Source of the DNA: Xanthobacteraceae bacterium
GTDB lineage: Bacteria; Pseudomonadota; Alphaproteobacteria; Rhizobiales; Xanthobacteraceae
Length of the DNA stretch: 32,144 nt
Direction of reading: 5' to 3'
NCBI GenBank assembly: GCA_030039105.1
Contig: JASHQO010000534.1
Span: 1 to 32,144 of the forward strand
A program made the translations under genes and the position numbers. Shown here in pieces: positions 5,454 to 30,088 of the stretch. Every line of letters begins with the position of its first letter. Within the stretch, counting starts at the first letter, position 1. The notes under the pieces are model-generated. The model saw only the letters and a program-made list of their open reading frames with translations. It did not search any database and was not told where the DNA came from.

Positions 5454-6350
5454 TCATCGACGGCGCGCGATGACATACATGATGTCGAACATGTTGACGG
5501 TGACGCGCAGATCGAACACGCGCCAGCGGCTCAAGGCATTGTAGAGGCCGCTCTTCCGTGTCCGCCAGACCAGGACGTAATAGAGGATCGAACGCAGATT
5601 CCGCGAGATTCCGGGATGGCTGAGATGCATGACGTCGAAGCCATGCCGCTCGAGCAGCAGCCGCATGGTCGCGGCTGAGAAATAGTGCAGATGGGTCGGC
5701 GGATGGATCATCCGCCACTTGGCGCCGCGCAACCGTGCATTCAGGCTACCGATGTCGCCCGTGGTCAGCGCCAGCACGCCGCCCGGCTCGAGGTCGACAT
5801 GGATTTTCTCAACGAAAAGGTCGGGACGCTGCAGGTGCTCCACGGTGTCCCACATGACGATGGCGCGGTATTTTTTGCCGAGCGGGCGATTGAGATAGTC
5901 GCCCTGCGCGATATCGAGCGCGAAGCGGCCGCGGCCATAGGCGGTCGCTTCGCCTGAAATATCCAGTCCCGCGACCGATCTTACAAAATGCCTTGCTTCG
6001 TCGAGAAAAAAGCCGTAGGCGCAGCCGATCTCGAACATGTCGCGCTCGTGCAGGTCCGGAGCGATGCGCGCTAAGGTGCGCAGCCGGGCCCTGAAATTCA
6101 GCCGCAGGCTTTCTTCTTCGGCGACGTAGTCGAGGTATTCGTCGCCGTGAAAATAGCCGCGCTCATAGAGCTTCGCTATATCTTCCTCAGTAAGATTGAG
6201 ATTGGCGGAGACGAAGCCGCATCGCGTGCATGCGACCAGGCCGGGCGGGTGGCTCGGTTGCGTGGCGCCGCCGCAGACCAGACAATTCGCGCTCGCGATG
6301 CCGGGAGCAAGGGCCGGCGGCGCGGCGAATCGGGCGACGTCTTCGGTCAC
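5454..6350 (-). CDS. Class I SAM-dependent methyltransferase with an N-terminal CxxC...CxxC zinc ribbon
   Basis: The track ORF extends to 6545. I prefer GTG at 6350-6348, which overlaps the upstream gene's TGA (GTGA, 6350-6347). Motifs: CLVCGG...CTRCGF, MFEIGCAYGFFLDEA (motif I), VAGLDIS, IVMWDTVEHL, LEPGGVLAL. Confidence 0.8.
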   Translation of the reverse strand: MTEDVARFAAPPALAPGIASANCLVCGGATQPSHPPGLVACTRCGFVSANLNLTEEDIAKLYERGYFHGDEYLDYVAEEESLRLNFRARLRTLARIAPDLHERDMFEIGCAYGFFLDEARHFVRSVAGLDISGEATAYGRGRFALDIAQGDYLNRPLGKKYRAIVMWDTVEHLQRPDLFVEKIHVDLEPGGVLALTTGDIGSLNARLRGAKWRMIHPPTHLHYFSAATMRLLLERHGFDVMHLSHPGISRNLRSILYYVLVWRTRKSGLYNALSRWRVFDLRVTVNMFDIMYVIARRR

Positions 6351-7603
6351 AGACGCTGATCCAGATTTCGCTCCGACTCGGCGTGCCGGAAATTCGGCAA
6401 AACGTTGGCGATCGCGCGCGCCAACGCGTCCTTGGCAATGGCCCGATCGGGTTCGTTTACCCAGCACGCGATGTCGTCGAATAATTTTTGCGCGGCGGCG
6501 TTGCTCGGGACGTGGCGCAACGCGGATATGCTGCCGAGCCCGCAATCGGTGACGCTCTCTCCGGCGTCGACGAACTCCTCGAAGGGTTTTTCGCCGCCGG
6601 TATCGAGCGGTGTCAGCAGCAACGGCCAGCGCCCCTCCCGCGCCAGCCGCTCGACGTCGTTGCGCGCGCGCGCTTCGTCGTCGTAGCGCTCGGGCAACAG
6701 GCCCCAGTAATCAAGGCAGGCGCAGGCAACGTCTTCGAGGAGCTGCAGTTGAAATTTCGTGTCGGTCCGCGGTACAGCGATATGAGTGCCCGGAATCCGG
6801 CATGCGGCGATCAGGCAAAGCTCTGCCGCCTCGCCGTGGGAGATGAAGTAGCGCCTAGTATCGCGCGGCACCGCAAGCGGTTGCTGCTTGGCCAGGCGAT
6901 AACCAAAACCTTGCAGCAGGCTGCCGTTCGAGAATGCCACATTGGCAAATCGCGCCGAGGTCGACGCCTGATAGCCGGCGGCGGCCGCGTCGAAGACCAA
7001 ATCTTCCATCAGGCGCTTGTTGGCCCCCATCAGGCTCACCGGATTGGCCGCCTTGTCGGTCGAGACCGCAAAATAGGTCGCGCCGTGGCGGCGATCGGCA
7101 AGCCAGCGCTTGAAACGGATATGCCGGACCACGTTGGTATCGAACATCTGCAGGACGGAATAGATGTCCTTTTCCGACCGCACATGCTTGAGCGCCGCGA
7201 AATTGAGCACCACGTCGTAGGGCGGCACGTCGCGCAAGAGCCGCGCCATCACCGGGCCGCCGTAGTCGAGCGGCAGTGCGCGAAAGTCAATATCGGGAAT
7301 GCCGGTGGGTCGGCCGCGCAAGGTGCGAACGAGCTCGGCGAGCGAGTTCTCGTTGTGATCGGCGACGTGCAGCGCCGCCGGCGGATCGTCGAGCAGCAGC
7401 TCGACCGTGGCCGCACCGATGGAACCCGCGCCGCCGATCACCAGAATCCGGCGGCCGTGAATTTTTGCGGTGATGGCGTCGCGGCTTGCCGCGAGGTCGC
7501 CCGCGAACAGGGACGCGGTCCGCCCGGTGACGATCGCGGTGAGTTCCGCGGTTTCCGTTCCGGCGAGGCAGGCGGGCGTGCTGGCGCGGTCTGCCCGGTT
7601 CAT
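6347..7603 (-). CDS. CapD/WbqV-type polysaccharide biosynthesis SDR (nucleotide-sugar 4,6-dehydratase/epimerase family)
   Basis: Only the last 418 codons of track ORF 6347..8932 look real. ATG at 7603-7601 overlaps the upstream TGA (ATGA). Motifs: RILVIGGAGSIGAAT, NFAALKHVRSEKD, AVSTDKAANPVSLMGANKRLME. Confidence 0.8.
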   Translation of the reverse strand: MNRADRASTPACLAGTETAELTAIVTGRTASLFAGDLAASRDAITAKIHGRRILVIGGAGSIGAATVELLLDDPPAALHVADHNENSLAELVRTLRGRPTGIPDIDFRALPLDYGGPVMARLLRDVPPYDVVLNFAALKHVRSEKDIYSVLQMFDTNVVRHIRFKRWLADRRHGATYFAVSTDKAANPVSLMGANKRLMEDLVFDAAAAGYQASTSARFANVAFSNGSLLQGFGYRLAKQQPLAVPRDTRRYFISHGEAAELCLIAACRIPGTHIAVPRTDTKFQLQLLEDVACACLDYWGLLPERYDDEARARNDVERLAREGRWPLLLTPLDTGGEKPFEEFVDAGESVTDCGLGSISALRHVPSNAAAQKLFDDIACWVNEPDRAIAKDALARAIANVLPNFRHAESERNLDQRL

Positions 7604-8631
7604 AGCCGTTCCACACTTTCGCCCATGACCGTGCCGCTCTGCGCGACGGGCGCGATCGCCGTCCGCTCGGCCCCTTCGCATCGCGCTGGCCTGCCGCGGA
7701 TGTAACGGTGGTTGGCGATATATCGGGGCCGGCCTTTCACCTCGTCGAAAATCAAGCCGATATATTCGCCGATGACGCCGAGAAAGAACAATTGCACGCC
7801 GCTCAGGAAGCACAGCGCGGCGATCAATGAGGCCCAGCCCGGCACATCGATCGTGCCGAGCATATAGAACACGATCTCGAGGAAACCGCCGAGAAAGCTC
7901 ATAAAGGCGATAACCATCCCCAAGGCGACGCAAAAGCGCAGCGGAAATTTCGAGAACGAGCAGATGCCGTTGAGCGCGAAATTGACGAGCGTCGACGGGC
8001 GATAGTGCGAACGTCCGCCCGGCCGGGCATTGGGAACGAACGGCACGTGGACAATGTTGAAGCCGACCCAGGACACTAGGCCGCGCAGGAACGGATTTCG
8101 TTCGGTGATCTGGGCGCGTACGACTTCGGCGACGCGCTGCGACAGCAGCCGGTAGTCGGACGCGCCGGTCGGCAAATCCACCGCGCCGACGCGCTGCAGC
8201 AAGGAATAGAACCAGCGCGAGGTCAGGCGTTTGACGAGGCCGGTCTCGCGGCGGTCCTGGCGCACCATCTGCACGATGTCGGCGCCGTTCTCCCATTGCT
8301 CGACGATGCCGGCAATGAGCTCGGGTGGGTGCTGCAGGTCGCTGTCGAGCATGACGACGGCGTCGCCGCGGCTGCAGTCGATCCCCGCGATCAGCGCCGC
8401 CTGATGTCCGAAGCGCCGCGACATCACGATCACCTCGACCCGCGGATCGCGCGCGCTGATCGCTTGCAGCAGCGGCTCGGTCCTGTCCGGCGACGGGTCG
8501 AGCACGTAGACGATGCGGATGCGATAACGCTGTTCCAGCGGCTGCAATGCCGCCGCGAGCTGGCGATGGAAGAGCTCGATCATCTCTTCCTCGCGAAACA
8601 CCGGACACACGACGTCGAGGCTTCGCATCAT
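7600..8631 (-). CDS. GT2 polyprenyl-phosphate glycosyltransferase (GtrB / ArnC / DPM1-like)
   Basis: 343 aa. The N-terminal GT2 core has VVCPVFREEE, VLDPSPDRT, VMLDSDLQHPPE. Two C-terminal TMs end in the family hallmark LSGVQLFFLGVIGEYIGLIFDEVKGRPRYI. ATGA overlaps at both ends (8631-8628 and 7603-7600). Confidence 0.8.
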   Translation of the reverse strand: MMRSLDVVCPVFREEEMIELFHRQLAAALQPLEQRYRIRIVYVLDPSPDRTEPLLQAISARDPRVEVIVMSRRFGHQAALIAGIDCSRGDAVVMLDSDLQHPPELIAGIVEQWENGADIVQMVRQDRRETGLVKRLTSRWFYSLLQRVGAVDLPTGASDYRLLSQRVAEVVRAQITERNPFLRGLVSWVGFNIVHVPFVPNARPGGRSHYRPSTLVNFALNGICSFSKFPLRFCVALGMVIAFMSFLGGFLEIVFYMLGTIDVPGWASLIAALCFLSGVQLFFLGVIGEYIGLIFDEVKGRPRYIANHRYIRGRPARCEGAERTAIAPVAQSGTVMGESVERL

Positions 8632-9182
8632 CGCATGCTCTCGATGACCGACTGCAGTCCGCGTTCAAGCGATACGGCCGGCTGCCAACCCAGAACCCGA
8701 CGCGCCACCGTCGCATCCATGCGCGCCTGCGCGATCTCGTGCGGCCTGGGTTGCCCGGTCGCCCGATAGGACTTGTGCCGCCCGGCGACCCGGCAGCTAC
8801 AACGGATGATCTCTTCGACCGAATAGGCCGTTCCCGAGCCGAGGTTGAAAATCGAACCCGCCGGCGCCATCGTCGAGAGCAGCATCGCATCCACCACATC
8901 GTCAACATGAATATAATCGCGGCGCGGTGCAAGGTCTTGCACCAGAATCTCCGGGCTCCTGTCGTCCAGCAGTTGAGCGATCACGTGCGGGATCAAAAAG
9001 CTTTTCGTTTGGCCTGGGCCGTAAATGTTAGCCGGCCGAAGCGTCACCGTCTTCACGCCGAAATGCGAACCGTAGAACGTGCAAACCTGCTCGCCGATCG
9101 GCACCATCGGTTTCGGCAGCGTGATGGTGAAGGGATGCAGCCGCGTGCCGCGGCCGCCGGCAAGAATGACGGCGCGGCTCAT
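8628..9182 (-). CDS. Chimeric relic ORF: about 31 aa of a sugar-1-phosphate nucleotidyltransferase N-terminus fused in frame to the C-terminal half of an NAD-dependent epimerase/dehydratase; possibly a pseudogene
   Basis: MSRAVILAGGRGTRLHPFTITLPKPMVPIGE (NTP-transferase signature GGxGTRLxPxTxxxPKP) runs directly into QVCTFYGSHFGVKTVTLRPANIYGPGQ...RDYIHVDDVVDA...LGWQP. This is the SDR region downstream of the catalytic YxxxK. The product has no Rossmann GxxGxxG motif and no catalytic Tyr. The junction is near nt 9086-9092. Confidence 0.6.
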   Translation of the reverse strand: MSRAVILAGGRGTRLHPFTITLPKPMVPIGEQVCTFYGSHFGVKTVTLRPANIYGPGQTKSFLIPHVIAQLLDDRSPEILVQDLAPRRDYIHVDDVVDAMLLSTMAPAGSIFNLGSGTAYSVEEIIRCSCRVAGRHKSYRATGQPRPHEIAQARMDATVARRVLGWQPAVSLERGLQSVIESMR

Positions 9183-9334
9183 GGCGCAGCACCCGCGCTT
9201 GTCCGAGGCACCCGGCCGTCTTGGTCCATTGCCTCAATTTATCCGATCGCTGACGCCGGGAACAGGTCTTGCGTCTCAAATGCAAAAAGTCCAATCATCC
9301 CGAATTCTCAGTCTATCAGATAGACAGGCACCTC

Positions 9335-10999
9335 GTGACAGCAAAAGTGTTGCCGGGCGAAGCTTTAGGCGGCGTACCTGTCCATAGCCGAAGAGAGGCG
9401 CTTGCAAGCCTTTCTGCACTTGTCATCGCGCTGTTGCTGCTCGCCGCCATGCTTGGCACTTTGTTCGAAAAGAACCTGATCGGAATCGTTACGCCGCAAA
9501 GTGTGGATCGTGAGCTTTACGGCACTGCCGCCGCGCTGACCAAATTGAAATTTGGGATGGGGGGCGCGGCGGTTGACATGCGCATCTTCGCCACGCTTGC
9601 CAGAAGCGGCTTTACCGACGGTCCGCTTCCGGAGTTGCGCAAGCCCTTTCCCGAGAACCTAGGCGACGCCGAATTGCTGCAATCCGCCTTGGAGAAAGCG
9701 CAGACGATCGACTTGGCGCCGCCCAGGGCGTTCACCAATGCCGATGGCGAATACACCGATCTCACCAGCTTCACAGGAGAAGATACCGGCATCGCCACCT
9801 ACGCCTTTCTGGCGTTCGTTATATTCGGTGTGCATATCTCGTCGCTCACGTACTTCTATTTCGTGGTCGTGACGGCATCTTTGCTCCTGTATGGCGCGGG
9901 TCACGGTCGCAGCGTCGATGCAATGGCCGTCGGCGCCGTCATGACGCTGGCGCTTTATGTTGTGGCCTGTTCGAATTTCATCAACTTCCAGGCGACCGGC
10001 ACCGACGTGAAGGACGTCCGGTTTCTCAGTACCCTCGCCGCCATTCCGACGCTCCATCTTCTCGTCACATGGACGCGGTACAATTATCGGCTGAACCTGT
10101 TGGATTATGCCATTCTCGCGTTGCAGTCCGGAATTTTCGCCTTTGCTCTGCAAATCCGTGTTTCCACGATTTGGGCGGTGCTGGCGCTCACTCTCTATTG
10201 GATGGCGATCGTGAGCCTGCGCCGAGGTGATGTGTCGGGATCTCTCTTGAAATGGCGGCAACCGCGCTCGGCGGTCACGCTGGCGGCTGTGTTCGCCGTC
10301 CTGATCTCTGCACGCGTGCTGGCGACGTTATCGCTCAGTCCAGTCTACGCTGCCCGGGGTGACGTGACGCACCATACCTTTTGGCAGGGCGTGCTGTCGT
10401 CGCTGCAGTTGACGCCGGAATGGGAAAAAAAATACGGCCGCTCGGTGAATGGCGCTGAAGGCGACGCGATGCCCGCGGAAGTCGCGCATATCGCCATCAT
10501 GAAGCTGCCTCCCGAGCAGCGGCGGCAATATGTAAACAGCGACGGAGGAACAAAGAAATTCGCCCTTGAGAAATTCAGCCAGGTAGCGTTCTTCAATATT
10601 TTATCGAACGATCCGCGGTTCGTCCTGTACACTTTTTTCGTCGCCAAGCCGCTGCGCATCATGCAATCGGAGGTCCTGTTCTTCCGCGGACTGTTTGCCG
10701 GTCTCCCGATCTGGAATGTCCTGGTGCCCGTTGCCGCGCTGATGGTCTTGACTTGGCTCGTCGCGCGACATTGCGAAGCGCGGGCGACGCTGCTGGCCAC
10801 GGCCAAAGCGGCGCCGCTCTTTGTCCTGGTGTCATGGCTGCCGAATTGGCTGGTCGCGCTGAATCCCCTGGTGATGATCGATAATTTCGTGTGGCTCTTG
10901 TTTCTCTTATGTGCGGCCCTAGTGCTGATTGGCGCCGCTCTTGCGCGATCGGCTGGCGCCGGCAAACCGGGTGCGGCAATCGCTTCGTTGCGTGGCTGA
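9335..10999 (+). CDS. Polytopic membrane protein, paralog A of an unassigned three-member family (candidate GT-C/GtrC-like transferase)
   Basis: The track ORF starts at TTG 9269, but codons 1-22 are AT3-rich and look non-coding. In-frame GTG at 9335 (or 9347) is more plausible; the start remains uncertain. Layout: N-terminal TM, a hydrophilic segment, a TM block, a second hydrophilic segment, then C-terminal TMs. Colinear motifs are shared with 17965..19587 and 25482..27176. Confidence 0.75.
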   Translation: MTAKVLPGEALGGVPVHSRREALASLSALVIALLLLAAMLGTLFEKNLIGIVTPQSVDRELYGTAAALTKLKFGMGGAAVDMRIFATLARSGFTDGPLPELRKPFPENLGDAELLQSALEKAQTIDLAPPRAFTNADGEYTDLTSFTGEDTGIATYAFLAFVIFGVHISSLTYFYFVVVTASLLLYGAGHGRSVDAMAVGAVMTLALYVVACSNFINFQATGTDVKDVRFLSTLAAIPTLHLLVTWTRYNYRLNLLDYAILALQSGIFAFALQIRVSTIWAVLALTLYWMAIVSLRRGDVSGSLLKWRQPRSAVTLAAVFAVLISARVLATLSLSPVYAARGDVTHHTFWQGVLSSLQLTPEWEKKYGRSVNGAEGDAMPAEVAHIAIMKLPPEQRRQYVNSDGGTKKFALEKFSQVAFFNILSNDPRFVLYTFFVAKPLRIMQSEVLFFRGLFAGLPIWNVLVPVAALMVLTWLVARHCEARATLLATAKAAPLFVLVSWLPNWLVALNPLVMIDNFVWLLFLLCAALVLIGAALARSAGAGKPGAAIASLRG

Positions 11000-11069: not shown

Positions 11070-11822
11070 ATGAGCAGCGCGATGCATCAAAGCATTCAAG
11101 CGTTCTACGATCGCAAGTACACGCAGGGCAGCGAAATCCCGCGCACCAGCAAGATTTTCACCATCGACTGCGTGCCCGACGACACCCCGCTCGACATTCT
11201 CGACGTCGGCTGCGGCTCCGGCAGCAATTCGCTGGCGCTGGCCGCCAAAGGCCACAAGGTCCGCGGCGTCGACATTTCCGAACAAGGTATCGCGCGTTAT
11301 TGCAGTCACGGCTTCGACGGCCACGTCGTCGATCTGGAAAGCGGCATCGACTATCCCGACGGCACATTCGACCTGACGTTCTGTTCCGAGGTGATCGAGC
11401 ATATGGCCTCGCCCGACGTTCTTGCCGGCGAGATGTTTCGCGTGCTCAAGCCCGGCGGCCGCTTGGTACTGTCGACGCCGAACTCGGCATTCTGGCTCTA
11501 CCGCGCGCTCGGCCTGCTCGGCTTCACCGTAAGCGAGCTGCAGCACCCCAAGCACTTTCAGTTCTTCTCGCGCCGCAGCCTGCTGAAATTGCTGAAAACC
11601 GCCGGCTTCAGGCCGCTGGAGCTGACCGGGCGCAACATGTACCTCATCGTCCCGGCGTTGCCCGGGCCGCTCGACGGCCTGTTGCCGAAACTCGGCTTCA
11701 CCCGCGAAGTGCGCTTCCGCACCGGCAAGCATTTCTGGCATCTGTCGCACAAGGCGAGCTTTTACAACGCCTTGTTCGCCGATTGCCTGATCATGGTGAT
11801 GGAGAAGCCACGCGTCGCCTGA
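11070..11822 (+). CDS. Class I SAM-dependent methyltransferase
   Basis: 250 aa. Motifs: ILDVGCGSGSNSLALAAKGHKVRGVDIS (motifs I/II), FDLTFCSEVIEHM, LKPGGRLVLSTPN. Confidence 0.85.
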   Translation: MSSAMHQSIQAFYDRKYTQGSEIPRTSKIFTIDCVPDDTPLDILDVGCGSGSNSLALAAKGHKVRGVDISEQGIARYCSHGFDGHVVDLESGIDYPDGTFDLTFCSEVIEHMASPDVLAGEMFRVLKPGGRLVLSTPNSAFWLYRALGLLGFTVSELQHPKHFQFFSRRSLLKLLKTAGFRPLELTGRNMYLIVPALPGPLDGLLPKLGFTREVRFRTGKHFWHLSHKASFYNALFADCLIMVMEKPRVA

Positions 11823-11836
11823 CTGTTGTGGTCAGG
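11818..11836. terminator. Short hairpin spanning both stop codons of a convergent gene pair
   Basis: CCTGAC (11818-11823), a 7-nt loop, then GTCAGG (11831-11836). It contains TGA 11820-11822 (+ gene) and tca 11832-11834 (- gene). There is no U-tract, so the terminator role is speculative. Confidence 0.2.
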
Positions 11837-12758
11837 AACGGCCCGCCGAGCCGCGCTTGCGATCGAAGCTGCCGGCGGCGTCGCGGTTTTCGTTGAGCGC
11901 CGAATCGATCGGGATGGTGCTGTCGCGATGCACGCGGCCCATTTCGATCAAGAGCGCGGTCTGGGCGCCGTCGAGATTTTCCACGTCCTCGCGCGACCAG
12001 CGGTGATAGCGCGTCGCCGCCTTGATCGGAACGTCGCGCAACACCCGGTGCAGGCGCCGGATGTCGACGAAGTTGCGAATGACCTTGTGCAGCATCAGAT
12101 TGCGCGCCCTGCGCAGCTCGACGATCGGCACCGGCACTTCGGCGATCCAGAGCTGGGCGCGGGCGGCGCGCAACGTGAATTCGGTGTCGAACTGGCCGCG
12201 CCGCATGACGCATTGCCGGAAGATCGGCCGCATCACCGGAAGATAAAGGAATTTCAGCCCGTGGGTGTCGGAGCCGACGAAGCCGAACACCGCCTGCAGG
12301 ATGGTGTTGAGGCCCCAACTCAAGAGCTTGCGGTAATTCTGTTGCTGGTTGAGCGAGACGTCGGCCCGCTTCGAGCCGACCACGAGATCGTAGACCCCGC
12401 GGGTGCGGAAGCACCAGCGCATGAACGGCGCGTCCCAGAAATCGACGTTGATGATGAAGCCCCACGGCCCGGCGGCGTGCGCCAGGCCCTGGCACAGCGC
12501 CTCGCCGTAATCGGGCTTATCGAGCTCGACCAGCACCGAGCCCGGCCAGCGCCGCACGATCTCGGCGCAGACGGCGGCGGAGCCGTCGGTCGAGCCGTTG
12601 TCGACCAGCACGAACTGCCAACGGCCGCGGCCGACGAAATCGTCAAGATGCGGCGCCAGCTCCTCGGCCATGTCGACCAGCAGCGATGCCTCGTTATAGA
12701 CTGGCACGACGATCGAGACGTGCAACGAATTGTGCACTGCCGGGCTGTCGGCGCTCAT
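11832..12758 (-). CDS. GT2-family glycosyltransferase (soluble)
   Basis: 308 aa. ATG at 12758 is preceded by AAGGGGAG. Motifs: VSIVVPVYNEASLL and FVLVDNGSTDGS, typical of a GT-A/GT2 N-terminus. Confidence 0.8.
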   Translation of the reverse strand: MSADSPAVHNSLHVSIVVPVYNEASLLVDMAEELAPHLDDFVGRGRWQFVLVDNGSTDGSAAVCAEIVRRWPGSVLVELDKPDYGEALCQGLAHAAGPWGFIINVDFWDAPFMRWCFRTRGVYDLVVGSKRADVSLNQQQNYRKLLSWGLNTILQAVFGFVGSDTHGLKFLYLPVMRPIFRQCVMRRGQFDTEFTLRAARAQLWIAEVPVPIVELRRARNLMLHKVIRNFVDIRRLHRVLRDVPIKAATRYHRWSREDVENLDGAQTALLIEMGRVHRDSTIPIDSALNENRDAAGSFDRKRGSAGRS

Positions 12759-12965: not shown

Positions 12966-14081
12966 ATGCCTGAGCCCCCAGGCAACCGCACCGCCGTTGA
13001 CCGCATGAATGCCGGCACCCATCCGTCTGCGCAGGACCATGCTCGGGCCTATTTGCGCGGCAAGCGCGTCATGGTCACCGGCGTGTGCGGCACCGTCGGC
13101 AAGCAACTGGCGCGGCAGCTTCTGGAAAATTTCGAGATCGCCTCGCTGACCGGCATCGACAACAACGAAAGCGAGCTTGCCTTTCTGGAGGAGCGCTACA
13201 GCTCCCGCCACAACGCCCACTTTCTGCTCGCCGATATCCGCGACCTCGGCGCCATAACGCGGGAGACCCGCAACATCGAGGTGCTGTTCCACGCCGCCGC
13301 CTACAAGCACGTGGCGCTGTGCGAGCGTTCGCCGTTCGAGGCGATTCAGACCAACGTCATCGGCGTGCACAATATCGCCCGCGCCGCCGTGGAGAACGGC
13401 GTCGGGCGGCTGGTCTTCACGAGTTCGGACAAGGCGGTCAACCCGACCAACGTCATGGGCACTTCGAAGCTGATGGGCGAGCGGCTCGTCACCGCCGCTG
13501 CGCTCGATCCGAACCTCAAGGGTTCGACGTTCCTGTCGACGCGGTTCGGCAACGTGCTCGGCTCGCGCGGCTCCGTCATTCCCATCTTTCGCGACCAGAT
13601 ACGCAACGGCGGGCCAGTCACCCTGACTGACCCGGAGATGACGCGCTTCATCATGTCGTTGCACGACGCGGTGCGCCTCGTCATCGAGTCGATGGTGCTC
13701 GGGCAGCCGGGCGACGTGCTGATCACCAAGATGCCGGCGATCCGCATCGCCGACTTCGCCACCGTCATGGTGCGGGAATTCGCGCCGCAATGCGGCCGCC
13801 GGTCGCAAGACATCGAGATCAAGGTGGTCGGTCCGAAGCCGGGCGAGAAGCACTACGAGGAATTGATGAACGACGAGGAGACACGCCGGGCGTTGGAGCT
13901 CGAGCGTTATTTCGTCGTGCGTCCGGCCTTTGCGTTGCCGCAGCCGACGGAGCCCTACCGCGAGCAGCGCATGGCGGCGGTCGAGCAGCCTTACAATTCG
14001 ACGAACGTTGCGACGCTGTCGCAAGCCGAGCTCACCGATTTTCTGCGCCGGCACAGCCTGCTCGGCGGCGCGCCGGACTAA
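12966..14081 (+). CDS. PseB/FlaA1/CapD-type nucleotide-sugar 4,6-dehydratase family SDR
   Basis: Only the C-terminal ~370 codons of track ORF 11826..14081 look real. Candidate starts are ATG 12966 or ATG 13005. Motifs: KRVMVTGVCGTVGKQL, HAAAYKHVALCE, FTSSDKAVNPTNVMGTSKLMGE, RFGNVLGSRGSVIP. Confidence 0.8.
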   Translation: MPEPPGNRTAVDRMNAGTHPSAQDHARAYLRGKRVMVTGVCGTVGKQLARQLLENFEIASLTGIDNNESELAFLEERYSSRHNAHFLLADIRDLGAITRETRNIEVLFHAAAYKHVALCERSPFEAIQTNVIGVHNIARAAVENGVGRLVFTSSDKAVNPTNVMGTSKLMGERLVTAAALDPNLKGSTFLSTRFGNVLGSRGSVIPIFRDQIRNGGPVTLTDPEMTRFIMSLHDAVRLVIESMVLGQPGDVLITKMPAIRIADFATVMVREFAPQCGRRSQDIEIKVVGPKPGEKHYEELMNDEETRRALELERYFVVRPAFALPQPTEPYREQRMAAVEQPYNSTNVATLSQAELTDFLRRHSLLGGAPD

Positions 14082-14210
14082 AGCATGATCCCGAAAAAGC
14101 CTGTCCTCGGACTTGATCCGAGGATGGAAACCCGGTTTTCGGAAAAGATCATGCGCAAGCAAAAGGCTGGAGCGGGATGACGATTCGACCAAAACTCATT
14201 CCGCTCTAGC
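14082..14210. repeat. Intergenic REP/MITE-like repeat typical of Bradyrhizobium-like genomes (recognised from memory)
   Basis: Nested inverted repeats. Outer: GCATGATC (14083-14090) with GATCATGC (14147-14154). Inner: CCTCGGA (14105-14111), cttga, TCCGAGG (14117-14123). Its three frames read ...RFSEKIMRKQKAGAG, ...GFRKRSCASKRLERDDDSTKTHSAL and ...VFGKDHAQAKGWSGMTIR. I recall these as recurrent spurious small ORFs in this bacterial group. Confidence 0.5.
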
Positions 14211-14221
14211 GGGAGCCGGCC

Positions 14222-15370
14222 ATGCGCGCGCTTATTCTCGGCGGCGACGGTTATCTCGGCTGGCCGACGGCCATGGCGTTTTGCCGCGCCGGCCACGAGG
14301 TCTGCGCCGTCGACAACTATCTGCGCCGCAAGATCGCACGCGATACCCATTCCGACGCGCTGATGGCCAATCCGCTGCTACCGGAACGCGCAGCGCTGTT
14401 CGAGCGACTCACCGGAGCGAAGATCGAGGTGGCGATCGGCGATTGCTGCGATTTTGCTTTCCTGTCGGGGCTGGTTGGAAAGTTCGCACCCGACGTGCTG
14501 GTGCACTACGCCGAGCAACCGTCGGCGCCTTATTCGATGATGGGTTATGACAAAGCACACGCCACGCTGTCGAACAATCTTACCGCCACCTTCAACACCA
14601 TCTGGGCGGTGATGCAGCACGCGCCCGACTGCCACATCATCAAGCTCGGTACCATGGGCGAATACGGCACGCCCAATATCGACATCGAGGAAGGTTGGAT
14701 CGACATCGAGCACAAGGGCCGCAGCGACAGGTTTCTGTTCCCGCGGCAGGCCGGCAGCCTCTATCACACCACCAAGGTGCTCGACACCGATCTGTTGTGG
14801 TTCTACGTGCGCATTCACGGCCTGCGCGTCACCGACCTGATGCAGGGGCCGGTCTACGGGCTCTCCACCGACGAGGCCGATCTCGACCTGCGGCTGTTAC
14901 CGAATTTTCACTACGACGATATCTTCGGCACGGTGGTGAATCGCTTCCTGGTGCAGGCCGTGGCGCGCATCCCGCTGACGGTGTACGGCCGTGGCGGCCA
15001 GAAGCGCGGCTACCTGAACCTGCGTGACACCTTGCAATGCGTCGCCCTTGCGGCGGCGCATCCGCCGGCCAAGGGCGAGCTGCGCATTCTCAATCAATTC
15101 ACCGAGACGTTCTCCGTCAACGAACTGGCCGAGCGCGTGCAGCGTGTCGGGCGGTCGCTCAATCTCGCGGTCGAGATCCAGCACCTCGACAACCCGCGCA
15201 AGGAGATGGAGGAGCACTACTACAATCCGGCGCATCACGGCCTGGCCGAGCTCGGCCTCAAGCCGCATCTGATGACCGATGACGTGGTCGCGGCCATGCT
15301 GGAGCGGGTGTTCGAATATCGCGATCGTATCGTCGCCGATCGCATCATGCCGCGCGTGCGGTGGCGCTGA
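14222..15370 (+). CDS. sqdB: UDP-sulfoquinovose synthase homolog (SqdB/SQD1/Agl3 family SDR)
   Basis: The 382-aa product is colinear with SQD1 as I remember it. Motifs: LILGGDGYLGW, HYAEQPSAPYSMM, KLGTMGEYGTPNIDIEEGW, SLYHTTK (Y-H-x-x-K), TDLMQGPVYG, FGTVVNRFLVQA, PLTVYGRGGQKRGYLNLRDTLQC, NQFTETFSVNELA, NPRKEMEEHYYN. GGGAG lies 7 nt upstream of the ATG. Confidence 0.8.
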   Translation: MRALILGGDGYLGWPTAMAFCRAGHEVCAVDNYLRRKIARDTHSDALMANPLLPERAALFERLTGAKIEVAIGDCCDFAFLSGLVGKFAPDVLVHYAEQPSAPYSMMGYDKAHATLSNNLTATFNTIWAVMQHAPDCHIIKLGTMGEYGTPNIDIEEGWIDIEHKGRSDRFLFPRQAGSLYHTTKVLDTDLLWFYVRIHGLRVTDLMQGPVYGLSTDEADLDLRLLPNFHYDDIFGTVVNRFLVQAVARIPLTVYGRGGQKRGYLNLRDTLQCVALAAAHPPAKGELRILNQFTETFSVNELAERVQRVGRSLNLAVEIQHLDNPRKEMEEHYYNPAHHGLAELGLKPHLMTDDVVAAMLERVFEYRDRIVADRIMPRVRWR

Positions 15371-15372
15371 TC

Positions 15373-16365
15373 ATGCGTTGGGTCGTGACCGGCGGCTGTG
15401 GCTTCATCGGCAGAACCTTCGTCCGCCTGCTGCTGGCGCGCAGTAACGACACGATCCGCGTCATTGATGACCTTTCGGTCGGCAGCCGCGCCGAGCTCGA
15501 GCAAATAGGGCCGGTGGCGGCACTCGATCCCGCGACGCTGCAGACCGCCGCGACCGACGCCACCGGGTGCCGTATCGAGCTTGTCGCCGGCGACATTCGC
15601 GACGTTGCATTGGCGCGCCGGGTCGTCGCCGGCGCCGACGCCGTCATCCATCTCGCGGCCAATACCGGAGTCGGTCCTTCGGTCGCCGATCCGATGGCCG
15701 ACTGCACCGCCAACGTGCTCGGCACCCTCAATTATCTCGAAGCCTGCCGTCACGGCGGCGTCGGGCGTTTCGTGTTCGCCTCGAGCGGCGCGCCGATCGG
15801 CGATTGCGAACCGCCGATCCATGAGGAGCTCGCGCCGCATCCGGTGTCGCCCTATGGCGCCAGCAAGCTCGCCGGCGAGGCCTATTGCTCGGCCTACAAG
15901 CGTAGCTTCGGCATCGACACCGTCGCGCTCCGCTTCGGCAATTGCTACGGGCCATTGTCGAGCCACAAAGGCAGCGTGGTCGCCAAGTTCATTCGCGAGG
16001 CGCTCGCCGGGCAGGCCTGGGAAATCTACGGCGATGGCGCCCAGACCCGCGATTTCATCTATGTGGACGATATCGCCGAGGCAATCTTCCGCGCCGCCAC
16101 CGCACCCGGTGTCGGCGGCGAAATCTTTCAGATCGCAACCAACGTCGAAACCACGGTTTCGGAGCTTGCCGAGATGCTGCGCACGACGCTCGAGCGCAAC
16201 GGCGTCCCGACCCGCGGCATCCGCCACGCCGCGCCGCGAATCGGCGACGTCAAGCGCAATTATTCAGACACGCGCAAGGCCCGCGATCGCCTGGGCTGGA
16301 GCGCGCGCGTCAGCCTGGCGGACGGGCTCGATCGCACGGTGAAGTGGTTTCTGCGGCGCGCCTGA
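15373..16365 (+). CDS. NAD-dependent epimerase/dehydratase family SDR (GalE-like)
   Basis: ATG 15373 gives MRWVVTGGCGFIGRTF. The track start, GTG 15361, would overlap sqdB by 10 nt. Motifs: HLAANTG, FASSGAPIG, YGASKLAGE, LRFGNCYGP. Confidence 0.8.
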   Translation: MRWVVTGGCGFIGRTFVRLLLARSNDTIRVIDDLSVGSRAELEQIGPVAALDPATLQTAATDATGCRIELVAGDIRDVALARRVVAGADAVIHLAANTGVGPSVADPMADCTANVLGTLNYLEACRHGGVGRFVFASSGAPIGDCEPPIHEELAPHPVSPYGASKLAGEAYCSAYKRSFGIDTVALRFGNCYGPLSSHKGSVVAKFIREALAGQAWEIYGDGAQTRDFIYVDDIAEAIFRAATAPGVGGEIFQIATNVETTVSELAEMLRTTLERNGVPTRGIRHAAPRIGDVKRNYSDTRKARDRLGWSARVSLADGLDRTVKWFLRRA

Positions 16366-17964: not shown

Positions 17965-19587
17965 GTGCCGTCTCCAGCGCAAGACTCTTGCACCACTACG
18001 CGACTGTCGCAGCCGCGCACGATGATCGTGATCTTCGCGCTCGCTGTCGCCTGTCTTTGCGCGCTGAACATGCTGCACGCCTACCGGCTCGGTCTGCAGT
18101 CGCGAATGTACGACAATCCGACATATCGCTGGCGCCAGAGTCTGGTGATCGCGCTGTCGCGCATGCAGCCGCAACCGCTGCATGGATATGTCGGCTATGG
18201 CTCGATTCTGACCTATCTGACCCGGCACGGCCTTGCGTTGATGAACGACGAAGACGGGCCGCGCCTCAGCCGCCAAGACCTTGCCGCCTTGGTCGCCGAC
18301 GGCGCGCAAATGGACCGTCTGATGAAAGAAGCGAGTGAGGTCTCGATCGATCCGACACTGCCTCCCGTCATATTGCAAGGCAATGAGCTCGGCCTCGTCG
18401 ACTACATGGACTGGGCGTTCAGGCTTTACGGTATCAGCACCAATGCGCTGACCCTGTTCTATTTCACGCTGCTTTTCATCTCCGTGGCGCTATTCGTCGC
18501 CACGTTCCGCCGCTGCCGGCTTTGTCTCTTGCTGCTGATGCTCTATCTCGCTGGACATTACTTCGCGCTCGATTATGCCCGATTCTTCGGAATTCTCACC
18601 GTTCACAACAGTCGCTTCTTGCCGGTGATCGCACTGGTGCCGTCGCTGTACCTCATCCTGCTGATGGCGACCAAGGCCGCGCCGAAGCCGGGCGTGTTGG
18701 CGATGGCTGCCGCCCAGACCTTCATCCTGATGTTCATCGTGTTCTGCCGGACTCAGACCTATTGGCAGATCGCGGCGATTGCGCTTGCTGCCGTCGTGGT
18801 CAGCGGGCTGCGGCCGATCCGACAGGCGGCGATGCAGCCGAGCCGCTGGCTTGCGGCACTCGCCGCAACGGTGCGGCAGACGTGGCCTGCTGCTCTCAGC
18901 GTGCTGGGTGTCGTCGCGCTGCTCGCCTATTCCCAGTTCGCGCCCGACGAAAGCCTGTACTCAAAGGAATCGAAAGAGCATTTGCTCTGGCATTCGCTGT
19001 TCGTCAGCACGGTCATGGACGATCCCGAATTGTACGCGATTTACGGTTATAACCTGCGCAGCGATGACCTCGGGTACACCGCGGTCCTTCACGATTTACG
19101 CGGCCGCAATGACGGGGCGTCACCGATTGCCGAAGTGTCCGACGGGGTGCTCAATATCGTCGTCTTCAAGAGCAACGGCGCCTATGACCTCGCGGTCCGC
19201 CGACTGTTTTTTCGCATGGTGCGGGAGCACCCGTGGCCGGTGTTGCGTTCGTTTCTGTTCGGCAAGTTTGAGCGGCAGCTCGAATCTTTTGGCGACGCCG
19301 ATCCGTTGTGGGCGCCGGGCAACTACATTGTTCCGATAGGGCTGGCGCTGGCCGTTTCGCTGCTGTCGTTGGCGCTCGGCGCCGCGGAGCAAGGGATGGT
19401 GGCGCGGCGATTTCTTTTCGTCGTTCTCGCCTGTTCGCTGATCACGACGCTGTTCGATCCGAGCCCGGTCATTGCCGATGTCGTGCTCACCTGGTTTGCC
19501 GCCATCATGCTGTGCGTGGTCTATCTGCCGTTGGTGGCGCTGTTTCGTGCTTGGCGCCGCCGGGCTCCGGCGCCCGCCGGTGTTTGA
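17965..19587 (+). CDS. Polytopic membrane protein, paralog B of the unassigned family
   Basis: 540 aa from GTG 17965; an alternative ATG at 18022 gives MIVIFALAV. It has the same architecture and colinear motifs as paralogs A and C: NELGLVDYMDWAFRLYG, NSRFLPVIALVP, CRTQTYWQI, EHLLWHSL, FFRMVREHPWPVLRSFLF. Confidence 0.8.
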   Translation: MPSPAQDSCTTTRLSQPRTMIVIFALAVACLCALNMLHAYRLGLQSRMYDNPTYRWRQSLVIALSRMQPQPLHGYVGYGSILTYLTRHGLALMNDEDGPRLSRQDLAALVADGAQMDRLMKEASEVSIDPTLPPVILQGNELGLVDYMDWAFRLYGISTNALTLFYFTLLFISVALFVATFRRCRLCLLLLMLYLAGHYFALDYARFFGILTVHNSRFLPVIALVPSLYLILLMATKAAPKPGVLAMAAAQTFILMFIVFCRTQTYWQIAAIALAAVVVSGLRPIRQAAMQPSRWLAALAATVRQTWPAALSVLGVVALLAYSQFAPDESLYSKESKEHLLWHSLFVSTVMDDPELYAIYGYNLRSDDLGYTAVLHDLRGRNDGASPIAEVSDGVLNIVVFKSNGAYDLAVRRLFFRMVREHPWPVLRSFLFGKFERQLESFGDADPLWAPGNYIVPIGLALAVSLLSLALGAAEQGMVARRFLFVVLACSLITTLFDPSPVIADVVLTWFAAIMLCVVYLPLVALFRAWRRRAPAPAGV

Positions 19588-19604
19588 CGGTGCATCAAGC
19601 ACCG
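19588..19604. terminator. Short hairpin at a convergent gene junction
   Basis: CGGTGC (19588-19593), loop atcaa, GCACCG (19599-19604). It sits immediately after TGA 19585-19587, with the - gene stop (19595-19597) in the loop. No U-tract. Confidence 0.2.
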
Positions 19605-20326
19605 AGACGGTATATCACATAGTCTGGTGCCTTTATTTGCAGCTTGAATTGCGTACGGGCGGCGATGACGCCGCCATGGACCGGATTGGCGTAGACGATC
19701 GCGCATCGACGCGGCGCGCGGGCGACCGAGGCGAGGATGCGTTTGAGCACGGTATCGAGCACCAAGGCGTCGAACGGATTGAAGAAGTAGAAGATGGCGG
19801 CATCGTCGGGGATATCGAAAGCGCGCACATCGGCATTGATGACGGACCATTCGGGAACTGTTTTATTCCGACGGTGATAAAAGTCGGTCATGTTGTGCCG
19901 CGCCATTGCGCACAGCGTCGGCGACAGTTCCACGCCGATGAGCCGGCGCAGAGGCAACTGCGACGCAAACAGCAGGGCGCGCCCGAGACCGCAGCCGAAG
20001 TCGACGAATACCGCGTCACGCAGGTCGACCTGGTCGTGCGACAGCGCCTCCTTCAGGACCAGGTAGCTGGATGGAAAGCAGTCGTTGGCGTGGTGCAACG
20101 CCTCGGGATCGCCATCAAGCTCACCGGCAGGAATGACGATGCCGGTTTTGACGCCGAATGTCGCGTCGTAATACAGCTCGTGACAGGTGATCCACATGGT
20201 GCGCCGGACGCCGCGCTTGCGCAGCGACGAAAAAAAGTGGCTTGCAAGCTTGAATCTTTTGGCAAGGCGCAACGCGAGCTCCACGGCAACGACCGTCGGC
20301 CGACTTCGGCTCCCAAGTCTGGACAT
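19595..20326 (-). CDS. Class I SAM-dependent methyltransferase
   Basis: The track ORF extends to 20473, which would overlap the divergent gene at 20416. ATG at 20326-20324 is preceded by GGAAGG. Motifs: VFVDFGCGLGRALLFAS (motif I), LIGVELSP, AAIFYFFNPF. Confidence 0.75.
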   Translation of the reverse strand: MSRLGSRSRPTVVAVELALRLAKRFKLASHFFSSLRKRGVRRTMWITCHELYYDATFGVKTGIVIPAGELDGDPEALHHANDCFPSSYLVLKEALSHDQVDLRDAVFVDFGCGLGRALLFASQLPLRRLIGVELSPTLCAMARHNMTDFYHRRNKTVPEWSVINADVRAFDIPDDAAIFYFFNPFDALVLDTVLKRILASVARAPRRCAIVYANPVHGGVIAARTQFKLQIKAPDYVIYRLGA

Positions 20327-20415
20327 TGCCTTCCGGCAAGGCAAGCCAGCACCCTTTGGCGGCCTGCCGCCTTGCCGTATAATAGCTGTGCGGCAACTGA
20401 TTTGTTTTCCAAAAT

Positions 20416-21528
20416 GTGCCCGATCCGCTTCGAAGCGACGTGCTGACCCCGGCGCCCAATTCACCACCCGCACACGCGGCCGGCGTTGGGCTGTTGCGTG
20501 TCCGCCAGGCGCAGCTAGGCGACATGGTCGCGTGGCAGAATTTCGTCGATGCCGCGCCTGACGCCGGCGCGTTGCATCACGCCGGCTGGCACCAGGTCCT
20601 GAACGACGCCTTCTGGGTGCAGCCGTATTTTCTCATGGCAGTGGATGGCCGCGACGCGGTGCAGGGCATCTTGCCGCTCTATTACAGCCGCTCGCCGATC
20701 ACCGGCGCTCACCTGTCCTCGCTCGAGGGCGGCGTGCTGGCGGCAGGGCGGGACGCGACGTTTGCACTGCTCGCTGAAGCCAAGGCGCTGCGCGACCGTC
20801 TCGGTGTTGGCTACCTGCAGATCCGCGGCGGCGCGGTCGACCGGCCTGCCGAACTGACCGTGCCCAAGATACATACCACCGTCGACACAACGAGGCCGGT
20901 CGAGGCGCTGTGGGCCGCGGTGAAGAAGAAGACCCGATGGGGCATCCGCCAGGCGCAGAAACAGGAATTGCGGGTCAGCCGCGACGCCGAGCTGGCCGGA
21001 CTCGACGGCTTCTATCGGACCTACGCCGCGCACATGCGCGCCCTCGGCAGCCCGGTCGTCGGCCTCGACGCTTTCCAAGCCATCCGGCTTCACCTCGGCT
21101 CGCAACGGCTGCGGCTTTACCTGGTCCACCACCGTCAACGGCTGATCGGCGGCATGCTGTGCATCCTCAATGGCAGCCGGTGGACGGACTATTATGCCGT
21201 CGTACGAACGACCGCGGAGGTCGAGTTTGCCAATTATCTGTTGTACTGGCACGTCGTGCGCGACGCCGCGCAAAGCGGTGCGAGCTGTCTCGATTTCGGG
21301 CGAAGCACGCCGGACAGCAATGTCCATCTGTTCAAGCGCAAGTGGGGCGGTCGCGACGTCGAGTTCCCCTATCACTTCTATGCCAATCCGGCGGTCAAGA
21401 TGCGCGACCCGGGGCTGCAGCGCATTCATAAGCAGCAGGGTACGGCGCGGCGCCTGTGGGCCCATCTGCCGCCGTCGCTGTGCAATTATCTCGGGCCGCT
21501 GCTGCGCAAGCAATTGCCGTTTATCTGA
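20416..21528 (+). CDS. FemAB-like / GNAT-fold (Acetyltransf_6-like) acyl- or aminoacyl-transferase
   Basis: 370 aa from GTG 20416; alternative starts are TTG 20494 and ATG 20524. The pattern matches FemAB-related proteins of EPS loci as I remember them: W..FV......HH.GW, ILPLYY, GYLQIRG, RWGIRQAQK, FYRTYAAHMRALGSPV, CLDFGRSTPDSNVHLFKRKWGG. Confidence 0.6.
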   Translation: MPDPLRSDVLTPAPNSPPAHAAGVGLLRVRQAQLGDMVAWQNFVDAAPDAGALHHAGWHQVLNDAFWVQPYFLMAVDGRDAVQGILPLYYSRSPITGAHLSSLEGGVLAAGRDATFALLAEAKALRDRLGVGYLQIRGGAVDRPAELTVPKIHTTVDTTRPVEALWAAVKKKTRWGIRQAQKQELRVSRDAELAGLDGFYRTYAAHMRALGSPVVGLDAFQAIRLHLGSQRLRLYLVHHRQRLIGGMLCILNGSRWTDYYAVVRTTAEVEFANYLLYWHVVRDAAQSGASCLDFGRSTPDSNVHLFKRKWGGRDVEFPYHFYANPAVKMRDPGLQRIHKQQGTARRLWAHLPPSLCNYLGPLLRKQLPFI

Positions 21529-27176: not shown

Positions 27177-27463
27177 GATATTGGTTGTGGCCCGCAAGTC
27201 CCCATGGCAAACGCGCGAGTCGGCTCGCCGCAGGCGCGGATGGACCAAAGCCTTCATGCAATTGTGGTGCGTGACTTGCAAGGGTCGTGCGTCTGTTTGC
27301 GGGGCGCCAACGAGCGGGCTGTGTCGCCCTTCGGCGGCGGCCAAACGGCGGCAGGACTAACTGCGAAAGTCGAGCGCGGACAAACCCTTAACCGGCACAC
27401 CGGGAAAGCTTGAAATCGGTGGCTTTTGCCCGCATAAGGTCGCGCCAGTGCACAGGAGGGGTG

Positions 27464-30072: not shown

Positions 30073-30088
30073 TTCGGAGCCTGAACAC

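Follow-up and report, generated by a model that had tools for sequence, protein, structure and literature searches.

The described forms of the SQD1/SqdB family to which the present gene is closest are the UDP-sulfoquinovose (UDP, uridine diphosphate) synthase of Arabidopsis (SQD1) and of cyanobacteria (SqdB; EC 3.13.1.1) and the SqdB of Rhodobacter and Sinorhizobium (sqdBDC type), which has a C-terminal extension (about 405 amino acids in total) and is followed by genes for SqdD, a member of glycosyltransferase family 8 (GT8), and SqdC. Two further kinds of system bear on its surroundings. ArnC/ArnT, FlmF2/NaxD/FlmK of Francisella and the hopanoid enzymes HpnI/HpnK handle aminosugars on lipid carriers by means of a family 2 glycosyltransferase (GT2), a YdjC deacetylase (NaxD, HpnK) and, in the Arn and Flm systems, a GT-C transferase. 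In Bacillus thuringiensis, the short-chain dehydrogenases/reductases (SDRs) Pen and Pal act one after the other in a split dehydration of UDP-N-acetylglucosamine (UDP-GlcNAc) that proceeds via a free 5,6-ene. Here we analyze a gene for an SQD1/SqdB-type SDR (the SqdB-like protein) in a 32,144-nucleotide stretch of DNA from a Xanthobacteraceae bacterium (GenBank assembly GCA_030039105.1, contig JASHQO010000534.1; the whole of this stretch is called the window below), where it lies among genes for glycan biosynthesis.

Precedent for an SqdB-type enzyme that serves a glycan rather than a lipid is archaeal: Agl3 of Sulfolobus acidocaldarius provides sulfoquinovose for an N-glycan (PMC4388408), and the N-glycans of Thermoplasma acidophilum contain 6-C-sulfofucose (PMC11407970), the natural 4-epimer of sulfoquinovose. 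According to a 2024 review, these are the only two natural monosaccharides with a carbon-sulfur (C-S) bond, both of them found in glycans from archaea alone (PMC11407970). A 2026 review of sulfoquinovose cycling treats the sugar only as the head group of the sulfolipid sulfoquinovosyl diacylglycerol (SQDG) of phototrophs, polysaccharides and glycoproteins going unmentioned (PMC13436972), and our literature search returned no bacterial glycan with sulfoquinovose and no description of the three-SDR cassette reported here.

A full-length SQD1/SqdB homolog

The gene (Table 1) encodes a full-length SQD1/SqdB homolog with an intact catalytic center. Its open reading frame (ORF) is translated without interruption, and the G+C content at third codon positions (GC3; 0.83) is of the coding type. 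The best matches among the sequences in the PDB were those of SQD1 (1qrr and 1i24; phmmer, E of ~3e-121), with residues 2 to 382 aligning to residues 3 to 383 of 1qrr in a single, ungapped alignment and 182 of 381 residues (48%) being identical to Arabidopsis SQD1. A look-up of its exact sequence in public assemblies gave no match. An AlphaFold2 model of the protein (mean predicted local distance difference test [pLDDT] score, 82.5) likewise had 1qrr as its top Foldseek match (template-modeling [TM] score, 0.87; E of 6.5e-39), with other SDRs reaching at most 0.67. The colinearity with SQD1/SqdB over the whole length that had been claimed in an earlier, sequence-only reading of this DNA is thereby borne out, and the two catalytic segments named in it, KLGTMGEYG (residues 141 to 149) and SLYHTTK (residues 179 to 185), are both found in the translation, in addition to the NAD+-binding GxxGxxG motif (GGDGYLG; residues 7 to 13).

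These segments hold Thr144, Tyr181, His182, and Lys185, all invariant across the clade described below and corresponding to Thr145 and Tyr182-His183-x-x-Lys186 of SQD1; the dehydration-step residues Glu147 and Tyr148 are intact, and Met145 (Met146 of SQD1) and His95 are also kept. Replacement of His95, Arg101, Met145, Glu147, or Tyr148 with Ala leaves Agl3 inactive or crippled (PMC4388408). Among the residues tested in Agl3, His95, Thr144, Met145, Glu147, Tyr148, Tyr181, and Lys185 are all retained in the SqdB-like protein, Arg101 being the exception (PMC4388408). The sqdBDC-type enzymes share the family, the catalytic motifs, and probably the bacterial class of the window, but the SqdB-like protein is only 37% identical to the Sinorhizobium meliloti copy and has neither the C-terminal extension nor the downstream sqdD and sqdC genes. 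Its score against the NCBIfam equivalog model NF041015 (449.9 bits) is below the cutoff of 575 bits; since that cutoff is also missed by SQD1 itself (484.7 bits) and by the S. meliloti (332 bits) and Marinovum (338 bits) SqdB homologs of the sqdBDC type, it is uninformative here, and we rejected the low score as an argument against membership.

A separate and widespread clade

Metagenomes contain thousands of 382-residue relatives that are 76 to 91% identical to the SqdB-like protein. The JGI names them UDP-sulfoquinovose synthase, and in NCBI records they are called only NAD-dependent epimerase/dehydratase, which makes the clade invisible in standard genome annotation. A scan with one genome per species yielded 290 relatives, of which the best 80 (69 to 91% identical) were used for all locus counts given below; the clade thus occurs in no fewer than 80 genomes at the species level, spread over more than 15 phyla, at an identity of at least 69%. 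Carriers belong to the Alpha-, Beta-, Gamma-, and Zetaproteobacteria, Gemmatimonadota, Acidobacteriota, Chloroflexota, Rubrobacter, Eremiobacterota, Nitrospinota, Nitrospirota, Myxococcota, Thermodesulfobacteriota, Bacteroidota, Spirochaetales, Desulfovibrionales, and Candidatus Kaiserbacteria. To our knowledge, SQDG has not been reported in some of these lineages (Desulfovibrionales, Nitrospinota, Eremiobacterota, and Candidatus Kaiserbacteria), which we count against a sulfolipid role.

In a neighbor-joining tree of 102 family members, built without bootstrapping, the query clade was monophyletic, had a sequence of 59% identity (P0121) as its sister, and stood apart from both the SQD1/cyanobacterial-type and the sqdBDC-type clades. 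The phylogeny with SqdB, SQD1, and Agl3 that the sequence-only reading had proposed therefore separates the query from the first two, Agl3 having been left out of the tree. It also modifies the picture of an sqdB homolog outside a sulfolipid operon: there is indeed no such operon (see below), but the gene is a member of a separate, conserved clade rather than a displaced classical sqdB.

Four positions cleanly separate the query clade from both other clades, namely Met18 (Leu19 in those clades), Pro100 (Arg101), Asn228 (Arg229), and His230 (Asp231), the last three replacing SQD1 residues that the sqdBDC-type enzymes have as well. The query itself, all 80 loci, and 117 of 120 close homologs have proline at position 101 (SQD1 numbering), 3 homologs not being matched by the motif pattern. 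Proline is also the majority state of the family, occurring in about two thirds of 87 full-length representatives, so that an arginine here does not characterize the family as a whole. Arginine at this position is confined to the characterized clades, which are marked by the Arg-Arg-Asp triplet (18 sequences); the largest group (43 sequences) has Pro-Arg-Asp and includes a homolog from haloarchaea whose gene lies in a glycan cluster, and a Pro-Asn/x-His/Tyr triplet is found in the query lineage and its relatives (~30 sequences). Because proline is the family majority, the R101P exchange alone is not a sign of lost function, and we gave that interpretation little weight; only the combination is lineage specific. 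Judged from the sequences compared, the triple change R101P/R229N/D231H is a marker of the query lineage.

Elsewhere in the family, many representatives (P0127 to P0262) are 680 to 1,100 amino acids long and are split by intein-like insertions of ~330 to 400 residues at conserved sites (near residues 143 to 160, 183 to 192, or 233). Three representatives (P0228, P0251, and P0260) have cysteine at the position of Arg101 and are fused to a domain resembling class V aminotransferases/cysteine desulfurases, which, going by this resemblance, may be a built-in sulfur donor module.

No sulfolipid operon but a conserved set of SDR genes

For a tblastn search of the window, the queries were SqdD of S. 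meliloti and of Marinovum, SqdC of Marinovum, and an SqdX-like glycosyltransferase of Microbulbifer; no ortholog of SqdD, SqdC, or SqdX was found, the matches being generic SDR similarity at most. Extending the search to 83 related loci gave no match to SqdD, only generic SDR matches to SqdC, and weak, generic GT4 matches to the SqdX-like query at four loci, none of them convincing. The classical loci of S. meliloti, Marinovum, and Microbulbifer, used as positive controls, have either sqdD and sqdC or a GT1 gene downstream of sqdB, with a glycosyltransferase gene next to the S. meliloti sqdB homolog, at the position of sqdD. Within the window and the related loci, the statement in the sequence-only reading that no sqdX, sqdD, or sqdC is recognizable beside the gene thus holds. 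In place of a linkage to SqdX/SQD2, the query clade has a predicted UDP-GlcNAc dehydratase and an epimerase as companions in glycan loci. The data support the conclusion that the SqdB-like gene is not part of a sulfolipid operon and that, both in the window and in 80 further genomes, it has glycan biosynthesis genes as its conserved company.

The upstream member of this company is an SDR of the Polysacc_synt_2 family, for which the ATG at 13005 was chosen among the possible starts. It had been described as a PseB/CapD-type SDR; the family assignment stands, but the protein scores below the NCBIfam equivalog cutoffs for both PseB (235 versus 408) and FnlA (214 versus 730), and its closest solved relative is Pen (6BWC; 248 bits, ~38% identity), followed by the FnlA-type structure 4j2o, CapE, PglF, and FlaA1. 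It shares the S-D-K motif with Pen, whose catalytic Tyr is replaced by Met, as in PglF, CapE, and FnlA; the resulting combination of DK and M-x3-K was present in 78 of 81 partner copies. As with Pen and Pal, a second SDR follows, but it is an SQD1 homolog instead of Pal, and the surroundings contain no pseudaminic acid genes. A partner gene was found at 74 of the 80 loci and was adjacent to the sqdB-like gene at 70, mostly on the same strand and divergent in a few, with a typical gap of -12 to +16 nucleotides, so that the genes abut or overlap. Of the six loci without a partner, three or four end at a contig edge or hold a partial copy. The 140-nucleotide spacer in the window is atypical in this respect; the sequence of its stem-loop occurs once in the window, and neither an Rfam scan nor a promoter and terminator scan around the operon gave anything above background. 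We also looked for fusions of the partner with the SqdB-like protein among family representatives of 680 to 1,100 residues and found none, and a mirror-tree comparison of their distances gave a correlation (r = 0.10; Spearman, 0.24) within the permutation range, which is uninformative because the tree of the SqdB-like proteins is star-like.

Downstream, the GalE-like SDR of the sequence-only reading was confirmed by profile and PDB matches. Its ATG lies 3 nucleotides past the sqdB-like stop codon, the Asp-Glu pair of dehydratases is missing, and its closest solved relatives are the UDP-GlcNAc C4-epimerase PelX (6WJB/6WJ9; E of 2.6e-51), followed by GalE, WbgU, and WbpP. This gene occurs at 45 of the 80 loci, where it is usually adjacent, and Desulfohalovibrio reitneri has an isolated operon that consists of just these three SDR genes. 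A MAG (metagenome-assembled genome) of the Mariprofundaceae has two sqdB-like copies close together.

When all ORFs of the 80 loci were clustered, no real gene family other than those of the cassette was present at more than 9 loci. At least one glycan pathway neighbor was found at 49 of them, most of these labels coming from the inspection of representative sequences: DegT aminotransferases (two families; together, 16 loci), WecB (8 loci), PglC-like proteins (7 loci), acetyltransferases (7 loci), and, further, GT2/GT4, Ugd, GMD, and Wzx-, Wzz-, and Wzt-like genes. At some loci, the partner is divergent and forms a PglF/E/D-like group together with genes for DegT and acetyltransferases. Outside the query clade, the pAt plasmid of Agrobacterium tumefaciens (locus L089, 1535 to 9335) has an Arg-type SqdB homolog whose neighbors include four glycosyltransferases and several methyltransferases, and a Haladaptatus plasmid (locus L090, 7001 to 15167) has a Pro-type homolog with GT4, WecB, and flippase genes; glycan-type contexts of SqdB homologs therefore extend beyond this clade.

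A sulfo-sugar for an envelope glycan?

The reading that we favor, and to which we give as a whole a probability of roughly one half, is that the SqdB-like protein is a sulfite-adding, SQD1-type synthase whose UDP-6-deoxy-6-sulfo-sugar feeds an envelope glycan instead of SQDG and that its gene lies in the middle of a mobile cassette of three SDR genes for nucleotide sugars. Such an enzyme, with tightly bound NAD+, would oxidize C4 of a UDP-hexose, eliminate water across C5-C6, add sulfite at C6 of the enone, and reduce C4 again, the simplest product being UDP-sulfoquinovose made from UDP-glucose. The PelX-like SDR could then 4-epimerize this product to UDP-6-sulfofucose, which would match the sulfofucose of Thermoplasma, and the partner dehydratase would provide a companion 6-deoxy-N-acetylhexosamine for the same glycan. 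Since the cassette lies inside glycan assembly loci, we propose an envelope glycan or glycoconjugate as the destination of the sulfo-sugar; in the sub-lineage to which the window belongs, the GT2, YdjC, FemAB-like, methyltransferase, and flippase-like genes and the genes for the paralogous membrane proteins (see below) would serve assembly on a lipid carrier and subsequent transfer in the periplasm. From homology and gene context, we infer that the clade uses sulfite, that UDP-glucose is its substrate, that the sugar is destined for a glycan, and that the route involves a lipid carrier. The archaeal systems differ in that Agl3 keeps Arg101 and no partner UDP-GlcNAc dehydratase has been described for them, whereas the present clade is bacterial and resides in polysaccharide-type loci.

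An independent line of evidence comes from genes for phosphoadenylyl sulfate/adenylyl sulfate (PAPS/APS) reductase, which share an operon with the cassette at 6 of the 80 loci (five from Chloroflexota and one from Erythrobacter) and encode PF01507 proteins (E of 1e-44 and 1e-41) with CC, CxxC, and ECGLH motifs. As a source of sulfite, they support sulfite chemistry independently, and they are the one such line of evidence for the clade. Several observations weigh against the favored reading. The linkage just mentioned is limited to those six loci; the tree (with Agl3 absent) does not place the SqdB-like protein in a clade with a biochemically characterized member; Pro replaces Arg101, a residue whose exchange for Ala inactivates Agl3, along with the changes of Arg229 to Asn and of Asp231 to His; the near-obligate, often overlapping linkage to the dehydratase is left unexplained if the products of both enzymes are unrelated; and the window contains few recognizable glycosyltransferases and large membrane proteins without a family or fold assignment.

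The linkage to the dehydratase would be accounted for if all three SDRs acted on a single, UDP-GlcNAc-derived sugar, an explanation that we regard as possible but unlikely. The Pen-like partner would perform or speed up the dehydration and pass on UDP-GlcNAc-5,6-ene or an equivalent, to which the SqdB-like enzyme would add sulfite, giving UDP-6-sulfo-QuiNAc (N-acetyl-sulfoquinovosamine) for 4-epimerization by the PelX-like SDR; in the sub-lineage of the window, the GT2 would load the sugar onto a lipid carrier and YdjC would then remove the acetyl group. The translational coupling of the partner and sqdB-like genes at most loci and the stand-alone operon of D. reitneri fit such a pathway, as do the release of UDP-6-deoxy-GlcNAc-5,6-ene to a second SDR by Pen, the best solved relative of the partner, and the UDP-GlcNAc/UDP-N-acetylgalactosamine 4-epimerases among the best solved relatives of the third SDR. 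Kinetics of Agl3 show that sulfoquinovose synthesis can proceed through a free 5,6-ene, which takes up the sulfite (PMC4388408). A single GT2 and a YdjC de-N-acetylase, as found in L084 and other compact clusters, would imply one N-acetylated sugar, and a collection of 72,556 plasmids had no partner homolog of more than 40% identity and was also devoid of this SqdB clade. Furthermore, R101P, R229N, and D231H exchange two bulky arginines for smaller residues in loops that, by analogy with GalE, would line the sugar pocket. On the other hand, the SqdB-like enzyme keeps Glu147 and Tyr148, i.e., all of its own dehydration residues, and so has no obvious need for help with this step. The S-D-K/M-x3-K motifs of the partner are a complete 4,6-dehydratase signature (PglF, CapE, and FnlA), in contrast to the Tyr form represented by Pen, and its PglF/E/D-like grouping with DegT and acetyltransferase genes at several loci implies a free 4-keto-6-deoxy product. 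The sqdB-like gene lacks an adjacent partner at two or three loci, and a literature search under sulfoquinovosamine-type names returned no report of such a sugar. In its full form, which we put forward only tentatively, the cassette would make a novel UDP-2-acetamido-2,6-dideoxy-6-sulfo-hexose by a split route, to which the lineage of the window would add carrier loading, de-N-acetylation, decoration by the FemAB-like protein and methyltransferases, and transfer to the envelope by a new family of polytopic transferases.

Less probable still is a neofunctionalized SDR that adds no sulfite and acts instead as a 5,6-dehydratase, as a 4-epimerase or 4-reductase on the product of the partner, or with another nucleophile. 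This would explain why R101P, R229N, and D231H fall at positions that are invariant in all characterized synthase clades, the first of them being one at which the Ala mutant of Agl3 is inactive (PMC4388408), and why the gene is constantly paired with another dehydratase; two of the lost residues are basic, and if they lined the cavity for the anionic sulfur donor, sulfite binding might be altered. It is at odds with the 48% identity to SQD1 and the preserved catalytic core, including the TMGEYGTPNIDIEEG block and Tyr-His-x-x-Lys, with Pro101 being the family majority (haloarchaeal homologs in glycan clusters included), with the co-operonic PAPS/APS reductase at six loci from two phyla, and with the identity of at least 69% across phyla, which indicates a demanding, conserved chemistry. 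Finally, that the protein merely supplies UDP-sulfoquinovose for SQDG, with the lipid glycosyltransferase encoded elsewhere in the genome and the location in a glycan cluster being incidental, would agree with the unlinked sqdB and sqdX of some cyanobacteria (PMC13436972) and with the JGI annotation but is very improbable, given that the 80 loci, which represent more than 15 phyla, encode neither SqdD nor a convincing SqdX nearby, that the conserved neighbors are sugar-nucleotide enzymes and the variable ones glycan genes, and that the query clade is separate from both clades linked to lipid transferases.

Models of sulfonate cycling rest on sulfoquinovose as a lipid head group derived from phototrophs, and the clade suggests that heterotrophic bacteria, many of them known as environmental genomes only, put a sulfonated sugar into their envelopes. 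If the favored reading is correct, organosulfonate in the environment would have a new source, and bacterial surfaces would bear a new kind of anionic decoration with neither phosphate nor carboxylate; sulfoquinovosidases and sulfoglycolysis would have a new class of substrates. Were the sugar N-acetylated, it would be the third C-S monosaccharide and would point to a large, unrecognized pool of envelope organosulfonate in soil and aquatic bacteria of more than 15 phyla. Several carriers of the clade are in culture, among them D. reitneri, Rubrobacter marinus, Methylomonas subterranea, Roseovarius nitratireducens, Parahaliea maris, Rhodanobacter sp. DHG33, and Paramagnetospirillum kuznetsovii, which makes the idea directly testable.

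Other genes in the window

The window has a G+C content of 62.8%, and its closest relatives are MAGs of Xanthobacteraceae and Alphaproteobacteria that are syntenic over most of the region. At the loci of the sub-lineage with at least 75% identity (L001 to L008, L078, and L084), the cassette is accompanied by GT2, methyltransferase, FemAB-like, and YdjC genes and by those for the 432- and 540-residue membrane proteins, and L084, an unclassified metagenome contig, has counterparts for nine genes of the window.

Table 1. Coordinates and predicted products of features in the window
Feature	Positions	Strand	Remarks
Second GT2 gene	7600-8631	-	High GC3
Class I S-adenosylmethionine (SAM) methyltransferase	11070-11822	+	250 aa; co-travels with the cassette
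GT2 glycosyltransferase, weakly ArnC/DPM1-like	11832-12758	-	308 aa; PF00535; best NCBIfam match ArnC, weak (4e-8)
Polysacc_synt_2 partner SDR	13005-14081	+	358 aa; PF02719 (3.7e-89); predicted UDP-GlcNAc dehydratase
Spacer between partner and sqdB-like genes	14082-14221		140 nt; perfect 9-bp stem-loop at 14104-14124
SQD1/SqdB-type extended SDR	14222-15370	+	382 aa; ATG start; predicted UDP-6-sulfo-6-deoxy-sugar synthase, "P-N-H" clade
Third SDR, GalE/PelX-like 4-epimerase or 4-reductase type	15373-16365	+	330 aa; SSGAP...YGASK
Polytopic membrane protein, candidate lipid-linked-sugar transferase	17965-19587	+	540 aa; no known family
Methyltransferase-like protein	19595-20473	-	292 aa; weak Methyltransf_25 match; co-travels with the cassette
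FemAB-family/Acetyltransf_6 protein	20416-21528	+	At most 370 aa (start uncertain); PF13480
Polytopic membrane protein, possible MOP/Wzx-type flippase	23308-24606	+	432 aa; ~10 transmembrane segments
YdjC-family carbohydrate deacetylase, HpnK/ChbG-like	24609-25514	+	301 aa; PF04794 (6e-55)
SDR	27410-28516	+	Lipopolysaccharide (LPS)-core-type run, 27410-31733
Bifunctional PfkB kinase and cytidylyltransferase, HldE-like	28492-30072	+	LPS-core-type run
SIS-domain protein, GmhA-like	30089-30700	+	LPS-core-type run
Another SDR	30573-31733	+	LPS-core-type run

Homologs of the weakly ArnC-like GT2 near the cassette are 55 to 87% identical in L001 to L008 and 66% identical in L084. The methyltransferase-like protein that follows the 540-residue membrane protein shares 47% identity with the product of a 254-residue gene beside the L084 cassette. 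The FemAB-like protein matches TIGR03019 (pepcterm_femAB; 1.2e-56) below its cutoff and has homologs near the cassette in L004, L006, and L008 (55 to 56% identity), with one in L084 as well. For the YdjC protein, with its start set at 24609, the matches to HpnK (7.8e-41; 140 bits versus a cutoff of 233) and chitin disaccharide deacetylase (1.9e-34) are likewise below the cutoffs, and homologs occur near the cassette in L001 to L003, L005, L006, L008, and L084.

The 432-residue membrane protein had no Pfam match, and hhalign aligned it to a Wzx-like neighbor family with a probability of 70%; its homologs are found near the cassette in L001 to L008 and L084. The 540-residue protein had no Pfam, NCBIfam, or PDB sequence match, and for its AlphaFold2 model (pLDDT, 72) no Foldseek match in the PDB reached an E of <0.08, ALG3, ArnT, AglB, Pmt4, and STT3 being among the insignificant matches (TM scores, 0.14 to 0.32). 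Homologs are present near the cassette in L001 to L007, and more than 120 "hypothetical" ones occur in metagenomes. It is one of three paralogs in the window (9269 to 10999 and 17965 to 19587 on the + strand and 25482 to 27344 on the - strand; 22 to 28% identity, E of 1e-8 to 1e-15), all of 540 to 620 residues with ~10 or 11 transmembrane segments and devoid of Pfam, NCBIfam, or PDB matches, which may constitute a novel family of glycosyltransferases or polymerases in the membrane.

Since the window also contains two Acyl_transf_3 genes and at least four methyltransferase genes, the decorating enzymes of the sequence-only reading are well represented, together with the FemAB-like and YdjC proteins; its glycan transferases come down to few glycosyltransferases (two GT2 genes), and the Wzx label of its flippase is weak. 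By combining a GT2 and a YdjC-family deacetylase with polytopic membrane proteins of large size, the sub-lineage of the window resembles the lipid carrier aminosugar systems, from which it differs in that the matches are below curated cutoffs, no GT-C fold was recognized, FemAB-like and methyltransferase genes are added, and the donor sugar would be new. In L084 (4717 to 8501), genes for a Methyltransf_23 protein (a homolog of the product of 1052 to 2149 in the window), a radical SAM protein, and a PhyH-family dioxygenase lie directly before the cassette, which hints at further tailoring of the product.

Two ORFs of unusual composition lie upstream of the cassette. The first (8628 to 9182, - strand; 184 residues) is a junction of the first ~30 residues of an RmlA-like NTP_transferase with the C-terminal half of an SDR (Epimerase/GDP_Man_Dehyd) and looks like what a deletion has left of two former sugar-nucleotide genes or like a pseudogene of them. 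The other (6347 to 8932, - strand; 861 residues) overlaps the second GT2 gene in another frame and contains, in its 3' part, a second, partial Polysacc_synt_2 domain (profile positions 1 to 235 of 293); the real CapD-like gene is probably located at about 6347 to 7600. At the far end of the window, the LPS-core-type run of genes with HldE- and GmhA-like products suggests that a heptose pathway is encoded beside the cluster.

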